This document shows, one piece after another, positions 2,210 through 50,216 of a DNA stretch of 64,000 bases. The position numbers and the translations under genes are program-made. The stretch is from contig CM082590.2 of assembly GCA_040954595.2 (NCBI GenBank), positions 6,572,001-6,636,000 of the forward strand, read 5' to 3'. Origin of the DNA: Balanoglossus misakiensis (Eukaryota > Animalia > Hemichordata). A model generated the notes under the pieces. That model was given only the letters and a program-made list of their open reading frames with translations, was not told where the DNA came from and ran no database searches. Positions within the stretch are counted from its first letter, which is position 1; each line of letters starts with the position of its first letter.

Positions 2210-2211
2210 TG

Positions 2212-2245
<34 letters not shown>

Positions 2246-2351: not shown

Positions 2352-2439
2352 GTCATTTTCTATGTATATATAAAATCTATGTTAAATATAAAAAGTATTT
2401 TAGAACAATTTACATTGCTGCTTGGTATGATATAATTAC

Positions 2440-5600: not shown

Positions 5601-7966
5601 AGTTCATCCAAAATTTGGGCAAAAACTTTTGAATTCAACAAAAACACACCTCTAGCCCTATTGGTTCGCTTGGAATTATATATGCGAATAATTAATGGGG
5701 TAAATTGTGGGATTCGGTGAGGTGTTCCATCCCTCCAAATGCTAAGCCTGTACCTGCAGTGGATGTCAAGATATGAGAAAGTAGGTAAAAGGTCACTGAG
5801 GTCACCCAAAATTCTTTGACCAAATACTGGTCCATGTCCAAAAAAAACAAAAACTCTAGATCTATTAGTTCGTCTGTAATTAGGTATGCGCATACTTAAT
5901 GAGCTAAGCAGGTGTCACAGGTGACCCAAAACTTTGGCTTTTCATTATGGCCCCATACCTCCAAACGCCAAGGCTGTATCTGCTGTAGATGTCGAGATAT
6001 GCAAAAGTAGGTCAAAGGTCACCCGAGGTCATCCAACATTTGGGCAAAATATTTTGACCCCATACTGATCCATGTCCAGAAAAAAACAAACCTCTAGGTC
6101 ATTTGGTTCATCTGTAATTAGGTATGCGCATATTTAATGAGGTCAGCAGAGGTCAAAGGGGTCATGAAAAGTAGCAAAAATTTTTGATCACATACAAAAC
6201 CACATACATCAAAAACCAAACTTATAGCCCTATTGGTTAGCCTGGAATTAGATATGCAGAAAAATGATGCGTCAAAAGTAGGTCAAAGGTCATTGCCAAA
6301 ATTACCAAAATATTTATAGCTTATTCTTGTCATATGATGATTCATATCCATAAAAAGAATTTCTGTGCTATCAATTTTTAGGCTAGAAACAGAATTTTTA
6401 CTTTTTAATCGTTGTTCACAAAATCCAATATGGCCGCCAAAATCTTCGACCAATCACAATGATCTTCGCAAACTTGATAGACATCTGTTTAATGACCACA
6501 CACACCAAATCTTGTGACTCGGTTATCGCCGGTTCTTGAGAAGAAGATTTTTGAAATTTTACTAGGGTTTTTCGAAAATCCAATATGGCCGCCATAATCT
6601 TCGATGTTTAGTGCTGATATAGTGTTAAGTATGTCAAAGGTCACCAACAATTTGGGCAGAAAATTTTGACCCATAGTGGTCCATGTCCAACAAAAACCAG
6701 ACCTCTAGCCCTTTTGGTTAGCCCGGAATTAGGTATGCACATAAATAATGAGTTAAGCAGGTGTCACAGGTGACCCAAAACTTTGGCTTTTCATTATGGC
6801 CCTATACCTCCAAACACCAAGGCTGTATCTGCTGTGGATGTCAAGATATGCCAAAGTAGGTCAAAGGTCACCCGAGGTCACCCAACATTTGGGCAAAAAA
6901 TTTTGACCCCATACTGGTCCATGTATAACAAAAACAAAACCTCTAGGTCTATTGGTTCATCATTAATTAGGTATGCGCATATTTAATGAGGTCACCAGAG
7001 GTCAAAGGGGTCATGAAAAGTAGCAAAATTTTTTGATCACATACAAATCCACATACATCAGAAACCAAACTTATAGCCCTATTGGTTAGCCTGGAATTAG
7101 ATATGCAGAAAAATGATTCGTCAAAAGTAGGTCAAAGGTCATTGCCAAAATTACCAAAATATTTATAGCTTATTCTTGTCATATGATGATTCATATCCAT
7201 AAAAAGAATTTCTGTGCTATCAATTTTTAGGCTAGAAAAGGAATTTTTACTTTTTAATCGTTTTTCACAAAATCCAATATGGCCGCCATAATCTTCGACC
7301 AATCAAATTCCCCTTCGCAAACTTGATAGACATCTGTTTAATGACCACACACACCAAATCTTGTGACTCGGTTATCGCCCGTTCTGGAGAAGAAGATTTT
7401 TGAAGTTTTACTATGGTTTTTCGAAAATCCAATATGGCCGCCATAATCTTCGACCAATCACAATGATCTTCGCAAACTTGATAGACATCTGTTAGGTGAC
7501 CACATACCCCAAACGGCGTGACTCGGTTATCGCCGGTTCTGGAGAAGAAGATTTTTGAAATTTAAGCCAGATTTCAGAAAAAAAATTGTAGCAAAAAAAC
7601 TGCAACATTGTCAGCATAATTTCCAATTACAAAAATGATGGGCAGAAGGTAGTCTACCAGCATGCCAAATTTGAAGTTGATCTGACTTGTAGTTTCTGAT
7701 TTCTGAGATTTGCATTTTTTTAGAAAATCCAAGATGGCCGCCAGGTCACGTGACTAGTTAAAAATTCACAGGTTCAATGCACGACTACTCATTGACCTTG
7801 ACCACTGTAGCAAGTTTCAGAAGTGTACCTGCAGCGGTGTCTGAGATCTAGAGCGACAAAGAATTGACACAAGAATAAAGAAAGAAAGAAAGAAGAAAGA
7901 AGGAAAGACAGAAAAACCCCAACGAAACCAATAGGGCCCAAGCGCTGGTATGCGCTTGGGCCCTAA

Positions 7967-8027
7967 AGACAGAAAAACCCCAACGAAACCAATAGGGCCC
8001 AAGCGCTGGTATGCGCTTGGGCCCTAA
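7967..8027 (-). mobile_element. Orphan palindromic terminus of a HINE-like unit whose body lies left of the window
   Basis: AGACAGAAAAACCCC...GGGCCCAAGCGC-TGGTAT-GCGCTTGGGCCCTAA stacked directly after the terminus of copy 1. Confidence 0.75.
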
Positions 8028-8037
8028 TAATAAAGAA

Positions 8038-15200: not shown

Positions 15201-17488
15201 TTAAAGCTGCAAGCAGCATTGTCCGGGCCCAAGCTCTATTATCTGATCTGAAAATTTTGACTCATAGTGGTCCATGTCCAACAAAAACCAGACCTCTAGC
15301 CCTTTTGGTTAGCCCGGAATTAGGTATGCACATAAATAGTGAGTAAAGCAGGCGTCACAGGTGACCCAAAACTTTGGCTTTTCATTATGGCCCCATACCT
15401 CCAAATGCCAAGGCTGTGCCTGCTTTGGATGCTGAGATATGCAAAAGTAGGTCAAAGGTCATCTGAGGTCATCCAAAATTTGGGCAAAAAATTTTGACCC
15501 CATACTGGTCCATGTCCAACAAAAACCAAACCTCTAGCTCAATTGGTTCGCCTGTAATTAGCTATGCACATAATTAATGAGGTCAGCAGAGGTCAAAGGG
15601 GTCATGAAAAGTAGCAAAATATTTTGATCACACACTAATCCACATTCATCAAAAACCAAACGTCTAGCCCTACAGGTTAGCCTGGAATTAGATATGCAGA
15701 AATAATAACGTGTGATAAGTAGGTCAAAGGTCATGTGAAAAATCGCCAAAAATTTGTAACATATTGTAGTCATATGACGATTGATATCCATAAAAAGAAT
15801 TTGTATGCTATTAATTTTTATACTAGAAAAAGGAATTTTAATTTTTCACTGCTTTTTACAAAATCCAATATGGCCGCCATAATCTTCGACCAATCACATT
15901 CCTCTTCCCAAACTTGATAGACATCTGTTTAATGAACACACACACCAAATCTTGCGACTCGGTTATCACCGGTTCTTGAGAAGAAGATTTTTGAAATTTT
16001 ACTAGGGTTTTTCGAAAATCCAATATGGCCGCCATAATCTTCGACCAATCACAATGATCTTCGCAAACTTGATAGACATCAGTTAGGTGACCACATACCC
16101 CAAACCCCGTGTCTCGGTTATCACCGGTTCTGGAGAAGAAGATTTTTGAAATTTAAGCCAGATTTCAGAAAAAAAATTGTAGCAAAAAAACTGCAACTTT
16201 GTCAGCATAATTTCCAATTACAAAAATGATTGACAGAAGGTAGTCTACCTGCACGCCAAATTTGAAGTTGATCTGACTTGTAGTTTCTGAGATCTGAGAT
16301 TTGCATTTTTTCAGAAAATCCAAGATGGCCGCCAGGTCATGTGACTAATTAAAAATTCATGGGTTCAATGCACGACTACTCATTGACCTTGACCACTGTA
16401 GCAAGTTTGAGAACTGTACCTGCAGTGGTGTCTGAGATCTAGAGCGACAAAGAATTGACAGAAGAATAAAGAAAGAAGAAGGAAAGACAGATTAAAGCTG
16501 CAAGCAGCATTGTCCGGGCCCAAGCTCTATTATCTGATCTGATTATTAGATATGCACATAATTAATGTGTAGAAACATAATGCTGTGTTTTATCCCAAGA
16601 AATATCAAGGTTATATCTATGTTTGGTGCTGATATAGTGTTAAGTAGGGCAAAGGTCACCCAGGGGTCACCCACAATTTGGGGAGAATATTTTGACCCAT
16701 AGTGGTCCATGTCCAACAAAAACCAGACCTCTAGCCCTTTTGGTTAGCCCGGAATTAGGTATGCACATAAATAATGAGTTAAGCAGGTGTCACAGGTGAC
16801 CCAAAACTTTGGCTTTTCATTATGGCCCCATATCTCCAAATGCCAAGGCTGTACCTGCTTTGGATGCCGAGATATGCAAAAGTAGGTCAAAGGTCATCTG
16901 AGGTCACCCAAAATTTGGGCAGAAAATTTTTACCCATAGTGGTCCATGTCCAATAAAAACCAGACCTCTAGCTCTATTGGTTCGCCTGTAATTAGTTATG
17001 CACATAATTAATGAGGTCAGCAGAGGTCACAGGTGACCCAAAACTTTGGCTTTTCATAATGGCCCCATATCTCCGAATGCCAAGGCTGTACCTGCTTTGG
17101 ATGCCGAGATATTCAAAAGTAGGTCAAAGGTCACCGGAGGTCACCCAACATTTGGGCAAAATATTTTGACCCCATACTGATCCATGTCCAAAAAAACTCA
17201 AACCTTTAGGTCTATTGGTTAATCTGTAATTAGGTATGCGCATATTTAATGAGGTCAGCAGAGGTCAAAGTGGTCATGAAAAGTAGCGAAATTATTTGAT
17301 CACATACAAATCCACATACATCAAAAACCAAACTTATAGCCCTATTGGTTAGCCTGGAATTAGATATGCAGAAAAATGATGCGTCAAAAGTAGGTCAAAG
17401 GTCATTGCCAAAATTACCAAAATATTTATAGCTTATTCTTGTCATATGATGATTCATATCCATAAAAAGAATTTCTGTGCTATCAATT

Positions 17489-18130
17489 TGTAACGGCCTT
17501 GTTGATCCATTGAATTTGTATACATGTATATCTGTATGTATGTTATACCTGTATCTTATAGTAATTAGTTATTCAATTATTCATATGACGTAATAGTACT
17601 TACCTTCAATTGGTTGATCTTAATTATATGCAAACCACCTGGAAGTTTCATTTGACCAATGAACACAAGCTAATCTGGCACTATGATGTAATTGCTGATA
17701 TAAAAGGACATGGTGCATAAAATTGGTCAGTTCACCTCTGTAGCCAGACCGGCCACACACGTTGGAACTGACATGTATTTGTTCCATTTCAGGTTAGTTT
17801 CCTTGTACCTTACCTGTTGCTTGAAGCTTTGTATTTTGGTGCATTCTACCGACTCATTTCAGCACAAGTAATTGGTGTCTTTAACTTGCGTCAATTTTCC
17901 AATTGTATGTCTATATTTTTCACTTGCATGAATTTTGGTGTATTCTGTTGGAGGTGAACTCCCATACATGTGTGTAATTTAGCAGTTCACCTCTGTAGCC
18001 AGACCGGCCACACACGTTGGAACTGACATGTATTTGTTCCATTTCAGTTATTAAATGTAAGGCCTATGTCTTTGTTACCCGTAACCTGTTTGGTGTGAAT
18101 ATGTTGGAATGAACGGCGACAACCGTGACA
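17489..18130 (+). repeat. 5' LTR (642 bp)
   Basis: TGTAACGG...CCGTGACA; matches 27784-28425. Confidence 0.96.
17699..17732 (+). promoter_or_regulatory. LTR core promoter: TATA box plus initiator
   Basis: TATAAAAG at 17699, TCAGTT at 17727 (A is 30 nt after the TATA start), CCAAT just upstream. Confidence 0.65.
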
Positions 18131-18132
18131 AA

Positions 18133-18151
18133 TGGCGTAGTCGGCAGGATT
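18133..18151 (+). promoter_or_regulatory. Primer binding site complementary to the tRNA-Ser 3' end
   Basis: TGGCGTAGTCGGCAGGATT, reverse complement of ...AATCCTGCCGACTACG-CCA of metazoan tRNA-Ser; 2 nt after the LTR. Confidence 0.9.
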
Positions 18152-19215
18152 TGGCAATTCCTACGCAAGTTCTTTTTTCGGGACGGAGAGGATGATACTG
18201 ACAAGTGCCATGTTTTAACTGGTCAGAAGTGTCTGGACAACGGACAACGCCCAACCAGGTGTGTCTTTCGCTGAGCTGGACGTCCTTGGGGAGTCACCCG
18301 GACTGCAGACAGACGGGAGCCAGGTCCAAGCGTCAACGGCGAGGAAAATTCTCTGCAGAGTGCCAAGTGGTGAAGTCGCTGAACTGTTACCGGCCGGAAC
18401 TGTTTAGTGTGAAGTGTTCATCGCGGTATACAAGGTATTGTGTGTCCAGAACTTGACAGTGTTATTCCGTGCGAACTATAGACAGTGCGCATAAATTCCG
18501 TCCGTGGCGCATAGTTTCCATCTGTGATAACTTCGGACTTGAACTTGTGGACTGGGTATTTTATTGCCAACGAACTTTCTGGTTATTCGCCGTAGAACCT
18601 GGTGTAACGTAATGTTTGTAAATTTTTCTTAGAAATTTCAATATTGTCTATATAATGGAATGTGGTCAAAGTAGTTTTGACTTTGATTTAATTGTTGAAG
18701 TGGGCTCCATGTGGATATAAACCCCTGTTTTGTTGCCTTTAGCCTGCTTTAAACGAAAAAAAATATATATATAAATTTTATTTTCTTTCAACAGCATATT
18801 TTGGTTAAGTGCTGAAGTATAATTTTCTTTGTAAATTTCAGTTCATTATTTTCCAAACGACGTGGAAAAAAAAAATTGTCAGCACTTGTTGAAAAAAAAA
18901 TATTAAGTTATAAGTTAAATATTGTATATTGACTTGAGTTAGGTTATTATTGTATTAGTTATTTAGTTGTTTCATTATTATTGAGACTGTCCATGAATGG
19001 TCGTATTCATCCAAATCATACATTAGTCTCTATAGAACCTTTGGCAGTGTATGTAAGCTATTCTATGCTTATTTCATTCCCTGTTAACGTATGTGCTATG
19101 CCAGTAGATACTGATATTATTGTTAAGATTTTCCAGTGAAATAGCTTGCATTGCATCGTATTTAACGACACGTCAGAGTCCTCCCAAATTGCCTCTCATT
19201 TTATGGAAAAAAAAA

Positions 19216-20640
19216 ATGGCTGTGTCCAAAATATCAATTCAAGAGCGAAGCATTTATGTGCAACACTTGCCTTTTGAATGTACAAAGAAACATTTTAGAG
19301 AATTTATAGAGTTACAGCTTGGGTTGGCCCAGGTTGATCAAATTTATATTTCTGATAAAGATTCCGCTTTTGTCATATTTGAGAATATAGAATCAGCCAC
19401 AGCCGCTCTGCCAGTAATACATAAAAGCACTTTTGAAGAAAGCAAATTACGGGCAAGTCGTGTGACCACAGCTCGAGGGTTGGAACTGTGGCATTTAATT
19501 GAGGAAACCGAACAAAGTACTGGCCTAGATTACAATGAAACCAGTGATCCCAAGACATCCAAACCCAAAGCAGATGTACAGGAAATTATTAACATGTTGA
19601 GTTTACTGTCTGAAGCAGATAGGAAAGCGGTTGCACAGGCCATATCACCTGCTCCACTGAAACCAATCGTATCAACCCCTATGCCACAGCCGATTCCATT
19701 TCCAGCATTTCCAGTACCAACTTCAGTTGCAGGTTCTTCACCATTCATTATGTCTTCACCTGCCCAAGCAGCTGCTGCACAGCCAGCCACAGCCACTACT
19801 GCTTTTCACTCGGTGGAATTCCCAAGAATAGTCGTCTTCTCTGGCAAAGGTGATGTCACTTATGAAATGTGGCGATATGAAGTTCGAGCACTACAGAGGG
19901 AGAATGTGTTTCCGGAGACCATAATTATGCAGGCTGTTCGGAAATCCCTACGAGCGTCCGCTGCTGAAGTCCTACTACATATGGGAGAAGACATCACAGT
20001 GTCCCGATTGATGGCGAAGATGGACATGGTCTTTGGGAAAGTATTGCCACCGGAAGCAGTTTTGGAAAAATTCTATACAGCACGACAAACGAAGACAGAA
20101 AAGGTAGCAGAATGGGCCTGTCGCATCGAAGGACTTTTGGATGAACTCAGATCAGGTCAGTCCATCTCTAGTAATTCAGAAGAAACCATGCTTCGAACCA
20201 AATTCTTTTCTGGCCTGTCAGATGAGCACATTAAGAATGCAATCAGACACCGATATGATACGGGAGAAGATTATTCAGGATTGTTGGTAGCCGCAAGAAA
20301 GCTTGAAGTAAATAGGGAGACCACTACCAGGGTTCACCAAGCAACTGTTGCTGACAAGACGATGATAACCAAATTGGAGGAACTTACCAAAGGTCTGAAG
20401 AACTTAGCTGAGAAGGTTGCTGAACTAGAGAAGCGAACTTCAACATCATCAACTCCAGAGTCTACTTTTCGCCGACGTGTCAACAATGAAAATGGCCGGG
20501 ATCGGCGTGGCAACGATGGAACTCGCCAACCCAAACAAGTTTTCCCAGGCAACTGCTTCAAGTGTGGTGAACATGGACACAAAAAGACAGACTGTCCTTT
20601 AAATGGGGAGCGACCAGGCATCCGGAGGGACATGCGCTAG
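19216..20640 (+). CDS. gag: Gypsy Gag: RRM-like N-terminus, PNMA-like capsid region, CCHC zinc knuckle
   Basis: First in-frame ATG at 19216; IYVQHLP and SAFVIF RNP-like motifs; FSGK..YEMWRYEV capsid-like segment; CFKCGEHGHKKTDC. Confidence 0.9.
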   Translation: MAVSKISIQERSIYVQHLPFECTKKHFREFIELQLGLAQVDQIYISDKDSAFVIFENIESATAALPVIHKSTFEESKLRASRVTTARGLELWHLIEETEQSTGLDYNETSDPKTSKPKADVQEIINMLSLLSEADRKAVAQAISPAPLKPIVSTPMPQPIPFPAFPVPTSVAGSSPFIMSSPAQAAAAQPATATTAFHSVEFPRIVVFSGKGDVTYEMWRYEVRALQRENVFPETIIMQAVRKSLRASAAEVLLHMGEDITVSRLMAKMDMVFGKVLPPEAVLEKFYTARQTKTEKVAEWACRIEGLLDELRSGQSISSNSEETMLRTKFFSGLSDEHIKNAIRHRYDTGEDYSGLLVAARKLEVNRETTTRVHQATVADKTMITKLEELTKGLKNLAEKVAELEKRTSTSSTPESTFRRRVNNENGRDRRGNDGTRQPKQVFPGNCFKCGEHGHKKTDCPLNGERPGIRRDMR

Positions 20641-20645
20641 GTCGG
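20598..20645 (+). promoter_or_regulatory. -1 ribosomal frameshift signal between gag and pol
   Basis: T TTA AAT heptamer in gag frame; -1 frame open into pol; downstream stem CGACC..GCAT..ATGC..GGTCG. Confidence 0.75.
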
Positions 20646-23174
20646 AACGGTAACAGTCCCTCTAATGTTATTGATTCTTTAATAGGCCACGCCAATGAAA
20701 CTGAGATTGTGTTGGAAGGATCCTCGTGTATTGCGCTGATAGACACCGGGTCCATGGTATCTACTGTTGCTGACACTTTTAACAGAGAGAAGCTACAGAA
20801 ACCAATTCATGACCTGAACAACTTGGTGAAGGTAGAAGGGGCTAGTGGTACAGAAGTTCCTTACCTTGGTTATATTGAAGTTGAAGTGAAATTCCCAGAT
20901 AGCCATGGACAAGAGATGTCTAAAGATATATTATTGCTTGTTGTTGAAGACACGGAATATAATCAGATGGTTCCAGTTGTGATAGGCACAAATGTTCTCC
21001 AACATTTTGTGGATGAAGATACACAGTACAGTACAGACCTATCCTCAGTATGGAGACTAGCATACCAAGCGACTATCCACCGGCAGAGGGCCGAAGGTAG
21101 GACATTTACAGTTACCACTACTAAACCCACAACCATTGGACCATACGAACGCACAGTCATCCATGGATTTTGCAGAGTGGACCTAAGAAATTGTCAATCA
21201 GTAGTTGTGGTGGAACCAGAAAATGACAGACTTTTACCTGGTGGTTTACTTGTTACTCCAGCCGTGTTGAAGTTAGAGCCTCGTGGTAATTCGTGTCGAA
21301 TCCCAGTAATGGTGACCAACTATGGAGCACGTGCTGTCACAGTTCTCCCTAAAAGCACCCTATGTAACATGAACTTAGCATCTAATGTCTCACAGCCTTT
21401 AGATCCATATGGAGATGATATTGATACAAACTCAGATGGGACCACCTCACCAAAAGTACCCGATTGGCTGATAAAAGACCTGGGATTACAAGAGGCAGAT
21501 ACAGAATTAACAGAAATCCAGAAAGACCAAGCCTTGGCTACCATTGGTAAATGGCAAACCGTGTTCTCTACAGGTGAGAGAGATTTGGGACACACAACAT
21601 TGGTAACACATTCGATAAAGTTAACGGATGAAACCCCCTTTAAAGATAAATACCGTCGAATCCCTATGGGTATGTACGAAGAATTGCAACAGTACCTGCA
21701 AGATATGCTACAGAGTGGTGTGATTAGAGAATCAAACAGCCCGTGGTCCTCAAATGTTGTATGTGTCAGAAAACCTGATGGGAAGCTGAGGGTGTGTATT
21801 GATTATAGACGTCTCAACGCCAAAACCATTAAAGACGCTTACGCATTACCCCGGGTACTAGATACGCTTGATAACCTTAATAACGCCGAGTGGTTTTCAT
21901 CGCTTGATCTACGGTCTGGATATTACCAAGTAGAGATGGCGGAAGACGACAAAGCGAAGACAGCTTTCACGGTGGGAAACTTCGGCTTGTTTGAATTCAA
22001 CCGTATGTCTATGGGTCTGACCAACGCACCTGCAACTTTCCAGCGTCTCATGGAGAAGTGTTTTGGAGAATTGGCGTTCAGAGAATGTTGTGTGTATTTA
22101 GATGACATCATAGTATTTTCGAAGACTTTTGAAGACCACCTCAATAGATTGGAGCGGGTATTCCAGCGGCTGGCATCACATGGATTAAAGTTGAAGGCAA
22201 CGAAATGTGTTTTATTCCAGAAGAAGGTGAAATATCTTGGACACGTGGTATCAGCCGACGGAATTACAACGGACCCAGACAAGGTAGCAGCTCTGAAGGA
22301 ATGGCCAATACCCACTACTGTAACAGAACTGAGAAGATTTCTTGGATTTGCAGGGTATTACAGGAGATTTATCCAAAGCTACAGTAATATTGCCAAGCCA
22401 CTTAACGACTTGCTGTGTGGACGTCAGTCAAGGAATAAGGCGGGAAAATTTGAAAAACTCCAGTGGGGACAACAGGAACAACAAGCTTTCGACACTCTGA
22501 GGAAGAGCCTAATGTCGTCACCAATACTAGCCTTTGCTGACTACTCACTTCCATTTGAAATACATACTGATGCAAGTTCCACAGGTCTGGGAGCAGTGCT
22601 GTATCAACGCCAGAAAGGTATTCTCAGAGTAATTGCCTATGCAAGTAGAGGACTCACCAAGTCTGAAAGTAATTATCCAGCTCATAAATTAGAATTTTTG
22701 GCACTGAAATGGGCCGTCACCAAGAAGTTCAACGACTACCTGTATGGAAGCAAATTCACTGTGTTTACAGACAACAACCCTTTGACGTATGTGTTAACTT
22801 CTGCGAAACTGGATGCGGTGGGACACAGATGGTTGTCAGACTTGTCATTGTACGACTTCTCTATTGTTTACCGGAGTGGTAAGAAGAATATAGAGGCTGA
22901 CGCTTTGTCTAGGATTCCATGGAATAGAGAGAATCCAGAGACGGAAACCAATCTGGGAGCCGATGTAGTCCAGGCGCTTTGTCGAGCAACAGAAGGTCCA
23001 TACGTAACTTCATTCGGAATGGTAGCAGATGAGGACAGACCTGCAGTAGTTCAAGGTGGGGATGATGTGTTCTGGAAGACGGAGCAGTCCAAAGATTCAA
23101 CAATACGGTATGTGACTGATCAGCTTGAAAAGGACCACAAACCACTTATGAGAGATCATACAGGAGATATCAGA
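20598..23174 (+). CDS. pol: Gypsy Pol N-terminal part: aspartic protease, reverse transcriptase, RNase H
   Basis: ALIDTGS, CIDYRRLN, DLRSGYYQV, YLDDII, HTDAS, FTDNNPL motifs; truncated by the TIR insertion. Confidence 0.95.
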
Positions 23175-23714
23175 AACAGTATAGAAAACATTTTCCAATT
23201 TCCGAAAAACCTCTTTTTTACATAATTACTGCTGAAAAAGTTAGAAATTTATGAAAATATTCCTTATTCTTTGCCAATTTCTAATGAAAAAATTACATAA
23301 AGGTATTCTTAGTCTCTTTCCTGCAGCTGTACAGCAGGAAAAATGCATTTTGTCATATTTTGGCTTTAAACTCAAATTAAAATTTATCTGTGAAAAAACT
23401 GAGTCTCCATCAAAGCCACGTACATGACAGTCCTTTTGATTTTTTTCTAATGAAACTTTGTCTCCATGTTTATCATGAGTAATATTTCTATTGAAAATTT
23501 GCAAGTGTGTGAATTGTTTGTAAAATTTCGCCAGAAAAAAACAATAGCATCAAAAAGTAAATCTGAAACCCAATATTTATTACAAGAATTGTTAGATTAA
23601 TATCCGTATCACGCAAATCCGTTGGATTTCGTATGAATTTTAGGAAATAAGCACTGCTCATTGACAAATCCATATTTTGCAGCTGAAATACTTGGAAAAG
23701 AGTCAGTGGCATGT

Positions 23715-24433
23715 GAGAGCTTGGAAATTTCCAAGCACTGACAAGGGTCAGTGGTCGGAAATTTCCAGACACTCAGGGAATGTGAGAGCCTGGAAATTTC
23801 CAAGCACTGACAAGGGTCAGTGGTCGGAAATTTCCAGACACTCAGGGAATGTGAGAGCCTGGAAATTTCCAAGCACTGACAAGGGTTAGTGGTCGGAAAT
23901 TTCCAGACACTCAGGGAATGTGAGAGCTTAGAAATTTCCAAGCACTGACAAGGGTCAGTGGTCGGAAATTTCCAGACACTCAGGGAATGTGAGAGCCTGG
24001 AAATTTCCAAGCACTGACAAGGGTCAGTGGTCGGAAATTTCCAGACACTCAGGGAATGTGAGAGCTTAGAAATTTCCAAGCACTGACAAGGGTCAGTGGT
24101 CGGAAATTTCCAGACACTCAGGGAATGTGAGAGCCTGGAAATTTCCAAGCACTGACAAGGGTTAGTGGTCGGAAATTTCCAGACACTCAGGGAATGTGAG
24201 AGCTTAGAAATTTCCAAGCACTGACAAGGGTCAGTGGTCGGAAATTTCCGGACACTCAGGGAATGTGAGAGCCTTGAAATTTCCAAGCACTGACAATGGT
24301 CAGTGGTCGGAAATTTCCAGACACTCAGGGAATGTGAGAGCTTAGAAATTTCCAAGCACTGACAAGGGTCAGTGGTCGGAAATTTCCAGACACTCAGGGA
24401 ATGTGAGAGCCTTGAAATTTCCAAGCACTGACA
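23715..24433 (+). repeat. 69-bp minisatellite, ~10.5 copies
   Basis: GAGAGCCTGGAAATTTCCAAGCACTGACAAGGGTCAGTGGTCGGAAATTTCCAGACACTCAGGGAATGT unit; 23-aa periodicity in ORF track. Confidence 0.95.
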
Positions 24434-24505
24434 GGGTCGTGGTAGTCCCCCGTACAGGTATGCGTTCTCCCGGCGTTTAATACATGGCTTCCACCACATC
24501 TCTGC

Positions 24506-24899
24506 AAGGCTCCATGGACAAAACTGATTCGTCTGAGATCCGGATCCGGACAGCAGCTTTTCGGCCGAGATTCGATTTTATCGGGGGGAATCTTTCCCCC
24601 GTCTACCCACAAATGACTCCAAATATGATGTAATTAACTTCCGAGCCGCTCGCTTTCTGATTTTCTCTTGTGTTTACCTGTTGAGATCGCCATATTGAAT
24701 ACAGTGAGGTTATCTCAATGGGTAAACACAAAAGTTTCAGAAAGCGAGCGGTTCGGATGTTAGAAGAAGTCAATCGTGGAGTCGGTTATAACCGGTTAGT
24801 AGACAGGGAAAGGATATTCTCCCGATAAAATCGAATTTCGACGAAAAGCTCTGGTACGGATCTGGACCGCAGACGCAACAGGTTTGTCTAAGGAGCCTT
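24506..24899. repeat. Long imperfect inverted repeat (~390-bp hairpin)
   Basis: AAGGCTCC/GGAGCCTT, ATTCGATTTTATCGGG/CCCGATAAAATCGAAT, CCGCTCGCTTTCTGA/TCAGAAAGCGAGCGG, TTGTGTTTACC/GGTAAACACAA pairs. Confidence 0.88.
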
Positions 24900-25177
24900 A
24901 GCGTCACAATGTTCATGACAGGCTTCGCCTACCAACTCCTCTGAGTTAGCCCATACACTAGTTGTTTATTGGGAATTGGTATTGTTTATCTGACATAATT
25001 GTTCTTTCTACTCTGTATACAAAGTCACAACTTCACAACTACCAAATGCTATTGTTCTTGAATTATGCAGTGTTACCAAATGTCACAGTTCAAACCACTG
25101 TTTATAAACAAGTATTGGCCATCCCGCCCCTCTCTCTTCATTCCGAACCTATTCCCAAGTGTACGCGGTATATTTGT

Positions 25178-25350
25178 TGGTGCCGAGACCAGGATGTCGG
25201 GCATGGAGAGAGAGAGAAGAACAGCAGAAGAGGCCACCGCAGTCAAATGACCAATCTTATCCGTAGGGTTGAAGATATAAACACAGGCGCAGTTCCTCAA
25301 CAGATAGCTTTCCTAAAGGCCATAATTTGAAACATGACAGAGAAACTCAA
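25178..25350 (+). pseudogene. BEL/Pao-like LTR retroelement fragment (tRNA-His-type PBS plus degenerate gag start)
   Basis: TGGTGCCGAGACCAGGAT followed by ATG and RRGHRSQMTNLIRRVED, which resembles BEL gag N-termini; frameshifted. Confidence 0.55.
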
Positions 25351-25746
25351 GATTTCCAAGCACTGACCCTGTCAATGCTTGGAAATTTCAAGGCTCTCAC
25401 ATTCCCTGAGTGTCTGGATATTTCCGGCCACTAACCCTATCAGTGCTTGGAAATTTCTAGGCTCTCACATTCCCTGAGTGTCTGGAAATTTCCGACCACT
25501 GACCCTTGTCAGTGCTTGGAAATTTCTAAGCTCTCGCATTCCCTGAGTGTCTGGAAATTTCCGACCACTGACCCTTGTCAGTGCTTGGAAATTTCCAGGC
25601 TCTCACATTCCCTGAGTGTCTGGAAATTTCCGACCACTGACCCTTGTCAGTGCTTGGAAATTTCCAGGCTCTCACATTCCCTGAGTGTCTGGAAATTTCC
25701 GACCACTGACAAGGGTCAGAGGTCGGAAATTTCCAGACACTGACCC
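25350..25746 (-). repeat. 69-bp minisatellite, ~5 copies, inverted relative to the left array
   Basis: Same 23-aa pseudo-repeat appears on the opposite strand (ORF 25447-25743). Confidence 0.93.
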
Positions 25747-26043
25747 TTCTGGAGTGACTAGCAATTTTTGCAAATTGTACTATTAATTGAATTCATAATT
25801 TAATTATTAGTTTTTTTCAATGAAATATTCAAATCCATACAACCCAAAGATGGCTCCTTTATTATTTCTATGGAAATTTCACAGTTTATTCTTTTCTTTC
25901 TGCACACTCGCAAACATCTTGAAATTAATCATAGAAAAATATCGAAATATATTGTACTGTGAACAAAACACTAATTTCCTTGAAAAAAGTTTAAAAAACG
26001 GCTACTTTTCGGAAATTGGAAAATGTTTTCTATACTGTTCAGA

Positions 26044-27456
26044 CTACTTATACGAGATTGGAAACGCCTTGTTCTGAAGAATGGAGTCCTATACAGGAAA
26101 TGCTTCATCGATGATATACAATATTTGCAACTTGTCTTACCAGTACACCATAGAAAAGATGTCCTGGAGGAACTACATGATAAACTTGGACACTTTGGCC
26201 AAGATAAAACCCTGGATCTGGTACGACGAAGATTCTACTGGCCTAGGATGTCGATGGATGTTCAAAAGAAAGTGGAACATTGTTTACCATGCATTCGCAG
26301 GAAAAGTTCAACTTCCTTACCCAGAACTCCCTTGGTTAATATTCACACATCACAACCGATGGAAATGGTGTGCATCGACTTTCTCCATATACCAACACCA
26401 GATCAAGGATATAGCAACATATTAGTGATGACGGACCATTTCACTCGATACGCTATAGCAGTACCTACAAAGAACCAGTCTGCCAAAACAACTGCCAAAG
26501 CATTGTTTGAACATTTGATTTTGCATTATGGGTTCCCAGGACGATTACACAGTGACCAGGGGCGAAACTTTGAGTCGTCTACAATTCAGGAACTTTGCCG
26601 AATAGCAAATATTAAGAAGTCCAGGACCACTCCATACCACCCCCAGGGAAATGGAATGTGCGAACGATTTAATAAGACGTTATTACAGATGCTTGGAACT
26701 ATGAATGAAGACAACAAAACAAGATGGGCTTCACATGTCAATACGATGGTTCATGCCTATAATTCTACAAAGCATGAAAGCACCGGATATTCACCTTTCT
26801 TTTTGATGTTTGGTCGTGAACCAAGACTGCCTATAGATGTATCTGGACATGCAGACCAGACCAACCTAGAATGTGGTGGAACAGTTTCAGATTATGTGAC
26901 GAAACTTGCCGAACGGTTGGATTACGCCTATAAAGTAGCAACGGAACGGTCTGTTAAGTCTGGTGAACGGCAGAAGAAGTCATATGATAGAAAAGTGAAG
27001 GTGGCCATAATACAACCTGGTGATACTGTGTTGGTGAAGAATACAGGACCTAAAGACAATTACAAATTGGCAGAACAATGGGAAAAGGATCCATATACAG
27101 TGATTTCACAGCCCATAGAAGACATTCCAGTATACGTGGTACAAAAACAAGTTAAGGGTGGAAGGAAGCGGACACTACATAGAAATTTGCTACTCCCAAT
27201 ACCAATAATTCCGGACGAACTGGATGACGATGTTAACACCAAGATGACGCAGCGTGATGTTAAGCAGAGTGTACCGGGTGTTATCAACGATGCTACCCAG
27301 GATGCAGTGGACGAAGAGGATGACGGCATTGGTAAATTGCAATTCGTGTCAACTATCAACTTGCCAACAGAACACAATGCTCTTAATCCTACTGCTGCAG
27401 AATTCATCCCATCCAGAAGAGAAAGTTCCCTGATGGACAACCCCAAGTATGGTTAA
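26044..27456 (+). CDS. pol: Gypsy Pol C-terminal part: integrase (HHCC, DDE core)
   Basis: HDKLGH..CLPC, CIDF, HSDQGRNFES, TTPYHPQGNGMCERFN, TGYSPFFLMFGR. Confidence 0.95.
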   Translation, partial: LLIRDWKRLVLKNGVLYRKCFIDDIQYLQLVLPVHHRKDVLEELHDKLGHFGQDKTLDLVRRRFYWPRMSMDVQKKVEHCLPCIRRKSSTSLPRTPLVNIHTSQPMEMVCIDFLHIPTPDQGYSNILVMTDHFTRYAIAVPTKNQSAKTTAKALFEHLILHYGFPGRLHSDQGRNFESSTIQELCRIANIKKSRTTPYHPQGNGMCERFNKTLLQMLGTMNEDNKTRWASHVNTMVHAYNSTKHESTGYSPFFLMFGREPRLPIDVSGHADQTNLECGGTVSDYVTKLAERLDYAYKVATERSVKSGERQKKSYDRKVKVAIIQPGDTVLVKNTGPKDNYKLAEQWEKDPYTVISQPIEDIPVYVVQKQVKGGRKRTLHRNLLLPIPIIPDELDDDVNTKMTQRDVKQSVPGVINDATQDAVDEEDDGIGKLQFVSTINLPTEHNALNPTAAEFIPSRRESSLMDNPKYG

Positions 27457-27783
27457 TCCGGATGGACCTTCTCAAGTACTTACCTCAGATTTCTCGAATC
27501 ATATTTTGCAAAGTACGGATGGTTGGTCATCGAGCGATCCAGATGGTATCCCTCCTGCTACAACCAACATCAGTCCTGACTCCAGTAGTAGTACTCAACC
27601 TGAACCACGCTATCCTACACGACAGAGACGACCTCCAGATAGATATAGTCCCGAACAATGGAATCTAAAACAGTTTGCTCATACGACTTTATCTTCTATA
27701 CCATTTATTAATTGCCACTATTAATCAAATATCTTTAACTTACTTTAAATGACGAGGACGCCATTTCTCCTCGCAGGGGTGCG

Positions 27784-28425
27784 TGTAACGGCCTTGTTGA
27801 TCCATTGAATTTGTATACATGTATATCTGTATGTATGTTATACCTGTATCTTATAGTAATTAGTTATTCAATTATTCATATGACGTAATAGTACTTACCT
27901 TCAATTGGTTGATCTTAATTATATGCAAACCACCTGGAAGTTTCATTTGACCAATGAACACAAGCTAATCTGGCACTATGATGTAATTGCTGATATAAAA
28001 GGACATGGTGCATAAAATTGGTCAGTTCACCTCTGTAGCCAGACCGGCCACACACGTTGGAACTGACATGTATTTGTTCCATTTCAGGTTAGTTTCCTTG
28101 TACCTTACCTGTTGCTTGAAGCTTTGTATTTTGGTGCATTCTACCGACTCATTTCAGCACAAGTAATTGGTGTCTTTAACTTGCGTCAATTTTCCAATTG
28201 TATGTCTATATTTTTCACTTGCATGAATTTTGGTGTATTCTGTTGGAGGTGAACTCCCATACATGTGTGTAATTTAGCAGTTCACCTCTGTAGCCAGACC
28301 GGCCACACACGTTGGAACTGACATGTATTTGTTCCATTTCAGTTATTAAATGTAAGGCCTATGTCTTTGTTACCCGTAACCTGTTTGGTGTGAATATGTT
28401 GGAATGAACGGCGACAACCGTGACA
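27784..28425 (+). repeat. 3' LTR (642 bp)
   Basis: Matches the 5' LTR; preceded by a short purine-rich AGGGGTGCG. Confidence 0.96.
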
Positions 28426-29211
28426 AATTATTAGGCTAGAAAGGGAATTTTTACTTTTTAATCGTTTTTCACAAAATCCAATATGGCCGCCATAATCTTC
28501 GACCAATCACATTCATCTTCGCAAACTTGATAGACATCTGTTTAATGACCACACACACCAAATCTTGTGACTCGGTTATGGCCGGTTCTTGAGTAGAAGA
28601 TTTTTCAAATTTTACTAGGGTTTTTCGAAAATCCAATATGGCCGCCATAATCTTCGACCAATCACAATGATCTTCGCAAACTTGATAGACATCAGTTAGG
28701 TGACCACATACCCCAAACCCTGTGTCTCGGTTATCACCGGTTCTGGAGAAGAAGATTTTTGAAATTTAGGCCAGATTTCAGAAAAAAATTGTAGCAAAAA
28801 AACTGCAACTTTGTCAGCATAATTTCCAATTACAAAAATGATGGGCAAAAGGTAGTCTACGAGCATGCCAAATTTGAAGTCGATCTGACTTGTAGTTTCT
28901 GAGATCTGAGATTTGCATTTTTTCAGAAAATCCAAGATGGCCGCCATGTCACATGACTAATTAAGTATTCACAAGTCACTGCACATCTACTCATTGACCT
29001 TGACCACTGTAGCAAGTTTGAGAACTGTACCTGCAGCAGTGTTTGAGATCTAGAGCGATAAAGAATGGAACCAAGAATAAAGAAAGAAAGAAAGAAAGAC
29101 AGAAAAACCCCAGCGAAACCAATACGGGCCCAAGCCTGGCTTGGCTTGGGCCCGTAAAAAACCCCAACGAAACCAATAGGGCCCAAGCGCTGGCTTGCGC
29201 TTGGGCCCTAA

Positions 29212-30631
29212 TTAAAGCTGCAAGCAGCATTGTCCGGGCCCAAGCTCTATTATCTGATCTGATTATTAGATATGCACATAATTAATGAGTAGAAACATAA
29301 TGTTGTGTTTTATACCACGAAATATCAAGATTATATCTATGTTTAGTGCTGATATAGTGTTAAGTAGGTCAAAGGTCACCCAGAGGTCACCCACAATTTG
29401 GGCAGAAAATTTTGACCCATAGTGGTCCATGTCCAACAAAAACCAGACCTCTAGCCCTTTTGGTTAGCCCGGAATTAGGTATGCACATAAATAATGAGTT
29501 AAGCAGGTGTCACAGGTGACCCAAAACTTTGGCTTTTCATTATGGCCCCATACCTCCAAACGCCAAGGCTGTATCTGCTGTGGATGCTGAGATTTGCGAA
29601 AGTAGGTCAAAGGTCACCAGAGGTCACCCAACATTTGGGTAAAAACATTTGACCCCATACTGGTCCTGTCCAACAAAAAGAAAACCTCTAGGTCTATTGG
29701 TTCGCCTGTAATTAGCTATGCACATAATTAATGAGGTCAGCAGGGGTCAAAGGGGTCGTGAAAAGTAGCAAAATATTTTGATCACACACTAATCCACATA
29801 CATCAAAAACCAAACTTATAGCCCTATTGGTTAGCCTGGAATAAGATATGCAGAAAAATGATGCGTCAAAAGTAGGTCAAAGGTCATTGCCAAAATTACC
29901 AAAATATTTATAGCACATTGTAGTCATATGATGATTCATATCCATAAAAAGAATTTCTGTGCTATCAATTTTTAGGCTAGAAAGGGAATTTTTACTTTTT
30001 AATCGTTTTTCGCAAAATCCAATATGGCCGCCATAATCTTCGACCAATCACAATGCTCTTTGCAAACTTGATAGACATCAGTATAGTGACCATACTGCTC
30101 AAATCTTGTGACTCAATTATCGCCGGTTCTTGAGAAGAAGATTTTTGAAGTTTTACTATGGTTTTTCGAAAATCCAATATGGCCGCCATAATCTTCGACT
30201 AATCACAATGATTTTCGCAAACTTGATAGACATCAGATAGGTGACCACATACCCCAAACCCCGTGTCTCAGTTATCACCGGTTCTGGAGAAGAAGATTTT
30301 TGAAATTTAAGCCGGATTTTAGAAAAAAAATTGTAGCAAAAAAACTGCAACATTGACAGCATAATTTCCAATTACAAAAATGATGGGCAGAATGTAATCT
30401 ACCTGCACACCAAATTTGAAGTCGATCTGACTTGTAGTTTCTGAGATCTGAGATTTGCATTTTTTCAGAAAATCCAATATGGCCGCCAGGTCACGTGACT
30501 AATTAAAAATTCAAGGGTTCAATGCACAACTACTCATTGACCTTGACCACTGTAGAAAGTTTGAGAAGTGTACCTGCAGCGGTGTCTGAGATCTAGAGCG
30601 ACAAAGAATTGACACAAGAATAAAGAAAGAA
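29212..30631 (-). mobile_element. Subtype A unit interrupted by the autonomous Helentron
   Basis: Left hairpin/subTIR at 29212; interrupted at GAAAGAA|TT 30631. Confidence 0.8.
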
Positions 30632-33600
30632 TTAAAGCTGCAAGCAGCATTGTCCGGGCCCAAGCTCTATTATCTGATCTGATTATTAGATATGCACATA
30701 ATTAATGAGTAGAAACATAATGCAGTGTTTTATCCCATGAAATATCAAGGTTATATCTATGTTTGGTGCTGATATAGTGTTAAGTAGGTCAAAGGTCACC
30801 CAGGGGTCACCCACAATTTGGGCAGAATATTTTGACCCATAGTGGTCAATGTCCAACAAAAACCAGACCTCTAGCCCTTTTGGTTAACCCGGAATTAGGT
30901 ATGCACATAAATAATGCATAAAGCAGGTGTCACAGGTGACCCCACAACTTTGGCTTTTCATTATGGCCCCATACCTCCAAACGCCAAGGTTGTACCTGCT
31001 TTGGATGCTGAGATATGCAAAAGTAGGTCAAAGGTCATCTGAGGTCACCCAAAATTTGGGTAGAAAATTTTGACCCATAGTGGTCCATGTATAACAAAAA
31101 CAAAACCTCTAGGTCTATTGGTTCATCTGTAATTAGGTATGTGCATATTTAATGAGGTCAGCAGAGGTCAAAGGGGTCATGAAAAGTAGCAAAATTTGTT
31201 GATCACATACAAATCCACATACATCAAAAACCAAACTTATAGCCCTATTGGTTAGCCAGGAATTAGATATGCAGAAAAATGATGCGTCAAAAGTAGGTCA
31301 AAGGTCATTGCCAAAATTACCAAAATATTTACAGCTTATTCTTGGCATATGATGATTCATATCCATAAAAAGAATTTCTGTGCTATCAATTTTTAGGCTA
31401 GAAAGGGAATTTTTACTTTTTAATTGTTTTTCACAAAATCCAATATGGCCGCCATAATCTTCGACCAATCACATTCTCCTTCGCAAATTTGATAGACATC
31501 TGTTTAATGACCACACACACCAAATCTTGTGACTCAGTTATCGCCGGTTCTTGAGAAGAAGATTTTTGAAATTTTACTAGGGTTTTTCGAAAATCCAATA
31601 TGGCCGCCATAATCTTCGACCAATCACAATGATCTTCGCAAACTTGATAGACCTCAGTTTGGTGACCACATACCCCAAACCGCGTGACTCGGTTATTGCC
31701 GGTTCTGGAGAAGAAGATTTTTGAAATTTTGATCAGATTTCAGAAAAACAACTGTAGCAAAAAAACTGCAACATTGAAAGCAAAATATCCTATTTCAAAA
31801 ATGATGGGCAGAAGGTAAACTACCAGCACACCAAATCTGAAGTAAATCTGACTTGTAGTTTCTGAGATCTGAGATTTGCATTTTTTCAGAAAAAACAATA
31901 TGGCCGCCATGTCACGGTCAAAGGTCATTGCCAAAATTACCAAAATATTTGGGGTAGGTCCTGGCAGGGGTGATACCAATGTGCACAAAAATCAGAACTC
32001 TGGTACATTTAGAACAGGTAGAATGAGCTATATATGCATCCCTATAGGTTAGCCTGGAAATAGATATGCAGAAATAATAATGTGTGAAAAGTAGGTCAAA
32101 GGTCAGGTGAAAAATCGCCAAAAATTTGTAACATATTTTAGTCATATGACGATTGATATCCATAAAAAGAATTTGCATGCTATCAATGTTTAGACTAGAA
32201 AAAGGAATTTCAATTTTTCACTGCTTTTTACAAAATCCAATATGGCCGCCATATTTTTCGACCAATCACAATGCTCTTTGCAAACCTGATAGACATCAGT
32301 GTAATGACCATACTCCCCGAATCTTGCGACTCAGTTATCGCCAGTTCTGGAGAAGATTGTTGGAGTTTTACTATGGTTTTTCGAAAATCCAATATGGCCG
32401 CCATAATCTTCGACCAATCACATGTTCTTGGCAAACTTAGTAAAAATTGTGGCAAAAAAACTGGAACATGGACATCATAATGTCCAATTACAAAAATGAT
32501 GGGCAGAAGGTAGACTACAAAACATTATGATTACACACTAATCCACATGCATCATTACACATGCAGTAGTTGAGGGCGAAATACAAAGTTAGAATGGACA
32601 CATTATGTGATTGGTTAATTAGTCACAAGTGATGTGTGGATTGGTTGTAAATAGTTGAAAATTTTCATCTGAATCAATGAAAGTTTTGACAGAGGTATTT
32701 GTTTGGCTATAAACATATCTTTATTTAAGTGAACAGATCTGTATATTACATTCGTTAACTGTGAAGAGGATGTAGTATAGATATACCAATATATTGAGCT
32801 GTATAAACAGAGTGTTAACCCAACACGTCTATGGGGTATGAATCTGAAAGCAACTTCATCCTACGCACTTGAATCCGAAAACGAATCTGACTCCAGCAGA
32901 GGCGTTGACCTGAATCCGGTGAGTAACACGTATACAATTACATGCAGTTTTTAAATGTGGTACGAATGAGAGAATCGGTTGTTTGAACGTATTATACTTG
33001 GTGATGTTGGTTATGAAGTTGTTGTTTAACCAATGGTAGTGTGATTTTGTCTGTTTGTGAGACGATGGCAGTTTTGTAAGATGTTTTGTATTTTCGTCTC
33101 GAGCGAATTCCAATATGGCGGCTATCGTAACGTGTCGAGATTGCTTACTGTATGTAAAGAATCCATGGTACCGTAAGCATGCATGTTTTGGCAAATGTTA
33201 TATATGTTGAGATGGTGGAGTTTGCTGGATTAAATAGAACAATTAGAGGCTGGGTAAATCAGAGTTTCTAGTGCGTTCCATTCAAGTTGAAATTACGAGA
33301 TAAGCTTCTTTTTCAGTCAATGTACAAATGATTATTTAGACTGGAAAGGGTTTAGGCAAGCGAATCTCGTGACCGGAAGTGTTGAATTCGGGCGATCGGT
33401 GTGCCATGCGTATGTTACGTACAAGCGTTGGTAAAGTATTATTTCTGGGATGTGTATTTGTAAAAAATAAATAAACTGTGTGATATTTATGGATTGGCTT
33501 TTCCAAATACGTAAATACTGCATTTATTTCTGTGAATATTGTATGTTTATGTGATCAAAAGCCCAGGGGTTATCATTGTAATTTTTATCAGTTAAATCGA

Positions 33601-34097
33601 TTTGTTTTTTGATAATTGAAAGGAATTTTGCTTCAAATATTGAACAATCTGTGTGAGTACAAAACAGAAACATTGCTGGATTATTTGACGTTTTAGTTGT
33701 TTGTAAAAAAGTGGGGACAAGCGGAGAATTGGCCAAATATTTTTGGTGACCACTGTCTTTAGTGTGTATGCTTTCTGGTGGTGACAGGTGTGCCAAAACA
33801 TAGACAATGGAATCTGGCAGGAGCATGAAAAGAACAGTTGACTTGTAAACATATTTTGATGCCATGAAACTATGTTGTGGGCAAGACAAGTTATGTTATC
33901 AATCTGTGGTAACCTGTATGTGCCATTTGTATGGAAACTGTGATCAAGATATGAATTTCTGAATATCACAAGCTTGGCAGTGAATTCATTGTTAATTGTT
34001 ATCCTGTTTGTAGGCAATTGTATATTTTCATGTACTAGTTTAAATATACATTTATAGTTAATTAGTTATTAATTATTATTTATTATTTTCTTGACAG

Positions 34098-34123
34098 ATT
34101 TTGGCTACCAAAGAGTTTTCAAG
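34098..34123 (+). other. Putative 26-nt non-coding 5' UTR exon of the RepHel gene
   Basis: TTTTCTTGACAG|...TTCAAG|GTGAGT; upstream donor CCG|GTGAGT at 32918; acceptor TTTGTTCCAG directly before ATG 35771. Confidence 0.55.
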
Positions 34124-34619
34124 GTGAGTGTTGGTGCACAACAGTGCATATTATCATAGATTAACACTCAGGTGTGCATTGTGTCAAATGTGAATTAGCC
34201 TTTTAAATCATTTGCGGAGAAATTGCTTAGTTCTACTATCAGTCACACTGTGGTTTAATATCAGATAGGATGATTGTCCACTTCCATGCACCGTCTGTTA
34301 ACATGTAAAAGCACTAGCCCATTTCTTTGAATTTGTTATTCAGGGGTGATGGAACAAAAACATATTGTAATAGTTCATAGAAATGGTGTTTATTGAATAC
34401 ATCAGAAAGGAAGGGACTTGTATGTGCAGAACAATCATTGTGCTATGTGGTGTTAAGACCATTGGATAGTGCCGTTTCTTACAACAGTGGCTTCAATAAA
34501 ACATTGGTATGATGTATGTTTCTTGATATCCCTGCCTTGTTATTGAACTTGTATATTAAATTGTTAAGTGTAAATCAGGTCTATAACAATCGTTTGTGAT
34601 TCGTATGAGTGCATAATGA

Positions 34620-35495
34620 AAATGAGAAAATGTCGGGTCATTCAGGGTCAGGTCTGAAGCCTTATTTGGTTGTACATGGTGGATGTTGGGGTGTCCGTGT
34701 ATTTGTTTATGTGTGTGCAAATTCATACATGTATGCCTATCGTACTTGGACTTGATATTGCTAGTTGGTGGAAATGGTTTTGAAGTGAAATTTTATTCAG
34801 ATTTGGCTGAGTACATTGCAACGTAAATGGGAAAATGTCGGGTCATTCAGGGTCAGGTCTGAAGCCTTATTTGGTTGCACACAGTGGATGTTGGGGTGTC
34901 CGTGTATTTGTTTATGTGTGTGCAAATTCATACATGTATGCCTATCGTACTTGGACTTGATATTGCTAACTGGTAGAAATGGTTTTGAAGTGAAATTTTA
35001 TTCACATTTGTCTGAGTACATTGCAACGTAAATGGGAAAATGTCGGGTCATTCAGGGTCAGGTCTGAAGCCTTATTTGGTTGTACACGGTGGATGTTTTG
35101 GTGTCCGTGTATTTGTTTATGTGTGTGCAAATTCATACATGTATGCCTATCGTACTTGGACTTGATATTGCTAGCTGGTGGAAATGGTTTTGAAGTGAAA
35201 TTTTATTCAGATTTGGCTGAGTACATTGCAACGTAAATGGGAAAATGTCGGGTCATTCAGGGTCAGGTCTGAAGCCTTATTTGGTTGTACATGGTGGATG
35301 TTGGGGTGTCCGTGTATTTGTTTATGTCTGTGCAAATTCATACATGTATGCCTATCGTACTTGGACTTGATATTGCTAAATAGTGGAAATGATTTTTAAA
35401 GAAAATTTCACTCAGATCTGAGATTTGTCTGAGCACATTCTAATGTGAATGCCAGAATGTTAAGTCATACAGGGGTTAGGATTTAAGCCTTATCC
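34620..35495 (+). repeat. 205-bp tandem repeat, ~4 copies
   Basis: GAAAATGTCGGGTCATTCAGGGTCAGG recurs every 205 bp (ORFs 34816/35021). Confidence 0.93.
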
Positions 35496-35770
35496 TGTGT
35501 TCCAGCAGAAAAAAAGTGTGTCTGTGATACTTTGTGTGTATATGTGTCTATTTGTATACAGGCATGGGGATATGTGTGTATTATGTGTTGCTGTTGAATT
35601 ACAACCTTGTTCGGACTTAGTTTCTATAAATCACTTCTGTCTGTTAAAAGTTCCACTGCTTTTTACTGGTTATAATCACTAGTGATGTGATTTGATGAGA
35701 AGATTATCCGAAGTCTGGTGGTGAAAGGATAGTAAAAACCTAACTAGACAGTATATTTGCTTTGTTCCAG

Positions 35771-50180: not shown

Positions 50181-50182
50181 TG

Positions 50183-50216
<34 letters not shown>

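Follow-up and report, generated by a model that had tools for sequence, protein, structure and literature searches.

An array of repeated units was analyzed in a 64,000-nucleotide stretch of Balanoglossus misakiensis DNA (GenBank assembly GCA_040954595.2, contig CM082590.2, positions 6,572,001 to 6,636,000 of the forward strand). This whole stretch is referred to as the window, and positions are counted from its first nucleotide. Judged by their sequence, the units are non-autonomous Helentrons (HINE/DINE-1 type) on the minus strand. One unit, HINE G, very probably inserted without a target duplication into an older family copy, HINE F, and a young Ty3/Gypsy long terminal repeat (LTR) retrotransposon then probably inserted into G. 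The truncated body at 15201-16491 and the spare (orphan) 5' end at 29158-29211 are best read as the two halves of one element, with no target site duplication (TSD).

Results

Junctions and in silico rejoining

The junction bases and the family termini can be read directly. The left junction (16491/16492) lies between GACAGA and TTAAAGC and the right junction (29157/29158) between CCCGTAA and AAAACCCC, as stated in the initial annotation of this DNA. Intact family ends have five A's after GACAG, for example at 7907-7920. Excision of 16492-29157 (12,666 bp) leaves five A's and an end that resembles those intact ends, as had been predicted. Both junctions together hold seven A's, five from the target and two from the element. 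Because the element brings two A's, as found at 5/5 head-to-tail junctions, five of the seven are left to the target. The rejoined 154 nt, a scripted join by coordinates, comprise the final 100 nt of the left body followed by the spare end (54 nt). Alignment with the intact end at 55937 gives 148 matches, 6 mismatches, and 1 gap (score 261); the inner unit G's own end gives 139 matches, 10 mismatches, and 4 gaps (score 224), and unit C gives 104, 19, and 2 (score 137). The standard intact end is thus the best match in the excision and alignment proposed as a check. The left flank terminates in GA and the right end in AA, which agrees with the claim that there is no TSD; a TT/AA target duplication was rejected on the GA flank.

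Composition of the 12.7 kb between the halves

The separation of 12.7 kb given in the initial annotation is correct; the annotation named neither the Helentron/HINE family nor the Gypsy as the main part of this DNA. A reading of the 12.7 kb as a single element was rejected. The 12,666 bp are made up of three layers: the 1,725-bp HINE G, a 10,937-bp Gypsy with 4 bp of its target duplication, and a nested terminal inverted repeat (TIR) element (Table 1). The Gypsy-derived share is 86%. The Gypsy and TIR-element boundaries are directly visible. The two LTRs are identical (642/642), and the 4-bp duplication AATT flanks the Gypsy. Its TG...CA ends, 4-bp TSD, and order of reverse transcriptase (RT), RNase H, and integrase are those of Ty3/Gypsy elements. 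There is no room for env because only 328 bp separate the last open reading frame (ORF) from the LTR. Each LTR contains an internal direct repeat of ~75 bp, and the gag and pol ORFs are in different frames with a 70-bp overlap.

The TIR element has perfect 34-bp TIRs and a 4-bp duplication, CAGA. It contains a 69-bp repeat in two long inverted arrays, one on either side of a 0.9-kb spacer. Joins across its position are present in contigs from three runs. Pfam matches of the ORF spanning the 69-bp array were rejected as repeat artefacts, with 0 passing stretches. We place the Gypsy insertion after that of G because the LTRs are identical while the family units are 82-97% alike. The TIR element may have entered the Gypsy before or after the Gypsy inserted into G.

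Table 1 Coordinates of features in the window
Feature	Position	Strand	Remarks
Second Helentron copy, right part	1..7966		5 mismatches in 7,966 bp vs 47972-55937
Further spare 5' end (61 bp) and 10-bp microsatellite fragment	7967..8037	-	No partner bodies within the window
Outer HINE F, body and canonical 3' end	15201..16491	-	Putative short stem-loop, subterminal inverted repeat (subTIR); cut within five-A run
Inner HINE G, 3' part	16492..17488	-	Putative 3' stem-loop and subTIR 16492-16525; ends in the left AATT (4 nt) of the Gypsy duplication
Ty3/Gypsy LTR retrotransposon, 10,937 bp	17489..28425	+	LTRs 17489-18130 and 27784-28425
Gypsy PNMA-type gag ORF	19108-20640	+	Zinc knuckle
Gypsy RT/RNase H ORF	20571-23225	+
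Non-coding TIR element, 2,865 bp	23175..26039		Interrupts Gypsy pol
Gypsy integrase ORF	25984-27456	+
Inner HINE G, 5' part	28430..29157	-	155-bp repeats, (AAAG)n microsatellite, hairpin 29123-29156
Spare (orphan) 5' end, assigned to outer HINE F	29158..29211	-	Standard 14-bp-stem hairpin 29177-29210
Next HINE H	29212..30631	-	Head-to-tail with orphan; itself cut in its own microsatellite
Autonomous Helentron (putative)	30632..55937		Same family termini
2,522-aa ORF, uninterrupted	35744-43312	+	OTU, DUF6570, Helitron Rep, PIF1 helicase, AP endonuclease
Second complete nest	57207..60349	-	Outer J body 57207-58640, inner K 58641-60296, spare end 60297-60349

Assignment of the spare 5' end

The orphan differs from the standard end by 2 loop substitutions and from the end of G by 1 substitution and 4 indels, which form two compensating pairs in the stem. 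The hairpin of G has a 14-bp stem of a distinct type with compensating indels. G's end is a subfamily type because G-type ends in the contigs adjoin other neighbors (joints 29155-30630 and 29157-29209, among the joints listed). Over its last 145 aligned columns before the microsatellite, F is 94.4% identical to the standard-end unit and 86.7% identical to G. This difference and the closing A count sustain the earlier proposal that the truncated unit and the doubled palindrome are two halves of one element.

The doubled palindrome could instead be a local tandem duplication of G's end, altered by later change or gene conversion. The orphan and G alone of the 9 window ends have the same 6-nt loop, and an exact 61-bp tandem pair is found at 7904-8027. 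However, the orphan has the standard stem, the five differences listed above separate it from G, and the shared loop is common in the contigs. At 29194-29195 the other allele accounts for 29-31% of the summed contig depth in run X1 and 32-33% in X2, where summed depth is not a copy number and the queried stretch is the orphan itself. The orphan loop is a common family allele because the other allele has only 29-33% of this depth. The test for diagnostic bases that would link the outer palindrome with the inner unit was therefore negative. These data largely refute a local duplication, which we regard as highly improbable.

A second nest and the A counts

The window contains a second complete nest. 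It closes with a 2+3 A split, and its spare end is identical to the standard end over 53 nt. The sequence of J before its end is 93.8% like the standard type and 86.0% like K. Compared with its adjacent inner end, the spare end has 5 changes in the first nest and 6 in the second; compared with the standard end, it has 2 and 0 substitutions, respectively. The A count closes without duplication at 2/2 closed nests. The first spare end is completed by 1/10 truncated junctions in the window and the second (60297) by 2/10; the probability that both nests close by random draw is 0.022. A-count closure moderately exceeds chance. Doubled ends at other offsets in the contigs (6 entries) likewise favor nesting. 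A last-in-first-out parse closes 5 complete and 2 split units; A, B, D, E, H, L, and M are open and N is at the edge. The missing ends of the open units may be located past 64000, may have been lost by deletion between near-identical ends, or, as in the 5'-truncated CRe elements (PMC3627910), may never have been there.

These counts bear on a second alternative, in which G and a spare end acquired elsewhere formed a chimera with two 5' ends that moved as one and landed behind F. F would then be 5'-truncated or have its end further right. Such doubled-5'-end chimeras are modeled by Chellapan et al. (PMC5148889), and HelenXT233 carries two left terminal sequences (LTSs) (PMC11417382). Doubled ends recur in the contigs, one at ~5x the depth of long contigs (about 47; X2). 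The 7 open units in the window are likewise compatible with a chimera. Against it, the spare end complements a split found at only 1/10 truncated junctions, the second nest does likewise with a different split, and G-type ends have other neighbors among the joints listed. We consider the chimera unlikely. Contigs with loose ends before 29210 number 19 in X1 and 14 in X2, counts from which no array share is derivable, as the unitigs branch in the flanks.

Insertion sites and unit anatomy

The family start motif has 15 plus-strand copies from 8038 to 63692. Two minus-strand matches with two mismatches sit in the Gypsy LTRs and were excluded from the count. All 15 starts have a single orientation: 10 are in the microsatellite or A-run of the previous unit and 5 are directly at a complete end. 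This target zone comprises 6-24% of a unit's candidate sites (three site definitions, four reference units). The nominal P for 15/15 starts in the zone is 5e-10 or less, a value limited by a zone set post hoc, possible dependence of the events, and a window that is a cluster by selection. The starts show a preference for the 5' end zone, not the cause of this preference. The left flank on the plus strand is AA at 14/15 starts and GA at 1, and dispersed family copies in the contigs likewise have AA and A-rich flanks. A plain preference for purine-rich A runs is a simpler cause, in view of these A-rich flanks, than steering by the resident hairpin, which is the bolder one. Lepidopteran helitron-like elements reportedly disrupt (GAAA)n microsatellites, to go by the title of Coates et al. 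2010.

A subterminal inverted match of 10-12 bp connects both ends in 7/7 closed units. It co-varies with subfamily; the A-type matches 11 bp with its own end and 5-9 with others. The 5' hairpin has a 14-bp stem in 4/4 folded ends (z -5.2 to -7.4), and 0/200 shuffles were as stable. The units contain the (AAAG)n microsatellite and 155-bp and 237-bp repeats, and a single ORF of at least 120 aa (147 aa at 60078-60521). The ends on the ORF strand are CTAA in 8/9 cases and GTAA in G. MITE or CACTA identity was ruled out by the asymmetric subterminal repeats and the lack of a TSD. A canonical Helitron (HLE1; 5' TC, 3' CTRR after a single hairpin, insertion between A and T, no TIRs) was also rejected; the units have subTIRs and start with TT on either strand. 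Neither viral nor metagenome contigs contained the end motif (0 matches in each). In runs X4 and X5, from a second organism, the termini, the internal repeats, and the Gypsy family all recur at high identity.

A second subfamily (8038-9430, 55938-57206, and 62478-63691) is about 68% alike to the main subfamily. One base is altered in each subTIR copy and in each hairpin arm, yet the 3' end and target zone are those of the main subfamily. The further spare end at 7967-8037 matches the preceding end exactly over 61 bp, and the 10-bp piece after it resembles the microsatellite of the second subfamily. Both are missing behind the twin Helentron copy at 55937.

A third alternative is that rolling-circle concatemers or one-ended (5'-truncated) transposition made the array. 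Truncated units would then never have been interrupted, and the doubled end would be read-through. CRe-1,2,3 Helitron2 copies are often 5'-truncated (PMC3627910), and terminator bypass is credited for tandem arrays (PMC4067079). The head-to-tail junctions (5/15 starts) are those expected of a circle, and the truncated ends all stop at an A, as the true end does. However, neighbors come from different subfamilies (about 65-97% alike) and are not copies of one circle, and complementary A counts are not predicted. This origin of the array is very unlikely, although concatemers or one-ended transposition may lie behind some of the 7 open units.

A putative autonomous Helentron next to the nest

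An intact ORF encoding Rep, helicase, and endonuclease domains lies 6.5 kb from the nest. The 2,522-aa product matches PF14214 (Rep; E 2.4e-30), PF05970 (PIF1 helicase; 2.4e-26), PF03372 (C-terminal AP endonuclease; 1.2e-7), and PF20209 (DUF6570; E 8.7e-21), as well as Helraiser 7LCC (E 1.8e-20). It has the Helentron motif-2 signature ((F/Y)xR, GSPH) at residues 1269-1284 and YxxxY at 1500-1504. The ORF orientation is opposite to the canonical end orientation. The left boundary of the putative Helentron at 30632 is deduced from the sole upstream start motif, and the internal family-like pieces all run in one direction. The right boundary at 55937 is backed by the second copy. Two young copies of a long element carry the HINE end because the near-identity between 1-7966 and 47972-55937 stops at the family terminus. 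The units that follow the two copies differ at 40/1,217 aligned bases and by indels (96.7% alike). A 48-kb segmental duplication or assembly repeat was excluded on these two observations. Unit C is 91-94% alike to both flanks of the ORF region.

The long element looks chimeric. Near-complete HINE pieces (30632-31916, 53750-54575, and 54575-55937) and older diverged pieces (31916-32518 and 52951-53700) flank a unique core in a single orientation. Its sequence on the ORF strand is 5'-TT ... hairpin CTAA-3' (right end 55930-55937), which echoes the 5' TT/3' CTRR of the proto-Helentron (PMC4067079). A 963-bp unit is repeated in tandem (about 7 copies, 98-99.8% alike) at 43179-49928 and 1-1957; the array starts within the last 134 bp of the ORF and repeats the ORF 3' end. 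A 205-bp tandem array (34620-35417) lies upstream of the ORF, and in-frame repeats of 45 bp and 66 bp are found in its N-terminal part (35840-36134 and 37359-37854).

Discussion

The nest would have formed in three steps. F would have been in place first. G would then have entered a run of five T's ~54 bp inside the 5' end of F by a rolling-circle mechanism with no target duplication, dividing F into its body and its 5' hairpin. Last, the Gypsy would have inserted into G and stretched the gap to 12.7 kb. The nearby Helentron transposase, or a relative, probably acted in trans. HUH nicking and single-strand transfer are established in Helitron/IS91 biochemistry. Growth of the array would be last-in-first-out: a T-rich target lies beside each 5' hairpin, and each new 5' end would recreate a TT target. 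Bodies would hence line up on one side, and spare ends would be pushed to the other.

A more specific reading is offered tentatively, and we rate its three parts jointly as possible but well short of even. The 5' hairpin of copies already present would guide the transposase, which would insert within about 100 bp of it, always in one orientation. Several subfamilies and 25-kb autonomous copies would accordingly form last-in-first-out stacks. The rare one-T junction at 16491 would restrict how the two terminal T's are shared: the 5' end could have both, or each end one, but the 3' end could not have both, and there would be no TT duplication.

Several observations weigh against the insertion of G into F as set out here. 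The boundary can be moved by one base (element 16491-29156, split 0+5) with the rejoined sequence unchanged, so 1+4 and 0+5 are equivalent; the minus-strand site is between TTTT and T or between TTTTT and C, depending on the split. The initial annotation called its 1+4 reconstruction base-exact. Its junctions and five-A product hold, and its exactness was overstated; the split is ambiguous by one base and terminal T's vary. The 16491-29158 joint of an empty allele was absent among the 15 listed of 99 contig joints over 14900-30900, with the microsatellite masked. A paralogous intact unit would yield the identical joint, which is thus not locus-specific. Runs X1-X3 are one sample, possibly the source of the window. 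Of the other 8 ends in the window, only that of G has the orphan's 2 loop bases. Over 600 nt, unit D matches F at 97.3%, and the gain of a single A would make it a possible owner of the orphan. Spare ends are lacking within the window for the 7 open truncated units, so nesting is shown for only 2/10 truncated junctions. The 3' palindrome (5-bp arms) is present at 15/15 starts, 3 with one loop change, but its folding is no better than that of shuffles (z +1.27). One X2 contig joint has one A more than the rule predicts, so the A count is not strict. The extra A is in line with the variable number of terminal T's in the Helentron/HINE group (PMC4067079).

The event, a HINE within a HINE, is ordinary in kind, and its residual interest is the tight self-targeting at 15/15 starts. 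The nest is a clean natural record of a Helentron target site: the target is a copy of a known sequence, and its state before insertion is readable without the empty allele. If self-targeting is active and directed by the hairpin, it would explain DINE-1-like clustering and the origin of doubled 5' ends and of chimeric subfamilies. If the steering is true, the stacks would be a route to satellite-like arrays and could be read as a time series. HLE2 transposition, for which we know of no reconstituted assay, could be tested with this young intact transposase and its several cognate subTIR types. The terminal-T sharing at 16491 would bear on a point left open in PMC4067079.

Comparison with known systems

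TT targeting without a TSD, variable T's, reversed ORFs, self-insertion, doubled 5' ends, and an autonomous copy with two LTSs are already published. No study of serial self-targeted HINE stacks was listed in searches of open-licence texts, a weak negative. The units resemble HINE/DINE-1 elements (PMC4067079) in their 5' subTIR with inverted repeat, microsatellite, central tandem repeats, and 3' subTIR with a putative short stem-loop, in the T-rich TT target without target modification, and in an autonomous partner of Rep, helicase, and AP endonuclease with F/YxR and GSPH signatures. The reversed ORF is found in Helentron-Da-40 (PMC4067079) and is also reported for Helitron-1_DR (PMC3627910) and FoHeli4/5 (PMC5148889). 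The subTIRs are 10-12 bp here, in contrast to 12-15 in mite and 13 in DINE-1 (PMC4067079), and the 3' subTIR differs in lying about 24-34 bp from the end.

Helitron2 elements (PMC3627910) have a hairpin-forming 5' asymmetric terminal inverted repeat (ATIR) 0-2 bp from the end and a 3' ATIR that precedes a hairpin and lies 20-30 bp from the end. The present family shares this arrangement, with a putative 3' hairpin, along with compensatory changes, some reversed ORFs, and insertion between TTTT and T/C with no TSD. Both readings of the minus-strand site fit this 'TTTT then T/C' rule of Helitron-1N1_CRe (PMC3627910). The family differs in the endonuclease domain of its transposase and in having no variable-length TSDs of the kind seen in CRe-1,2,3. 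HLE2-reverse elements (HELIANO, Li et al. 2024, PMC11417382) likewise have DUF6570 as a marker and, with respect to the ORF, a stem-loop upstream of the left TIR.

The Ty3/Gypsy has the LTRs, TSD, and gene order of elements with a PNMA-type gag, and here it is a passenger with its pol interrupted by a TIR element. In the lepidopteran elements that disrupt (GAAA)n, compared by title, the microsatellite is the target; here the microsatellite target belongs to the element itself. Self-insertion that gives short duplicated 5' termini is common to this family and FoHeli (Chellapan et al. 2016, PMC5148889). The nests in the fungal elements are isolated, whereas the window contains a serial stack in one orientation with several subfamilies, and both halves of two hosts are recoverable. 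Clustering is mentioned without target analysis in the available part of PMC4067079; in this array, 15/15 starts lie in the 5' end zone of another copy.

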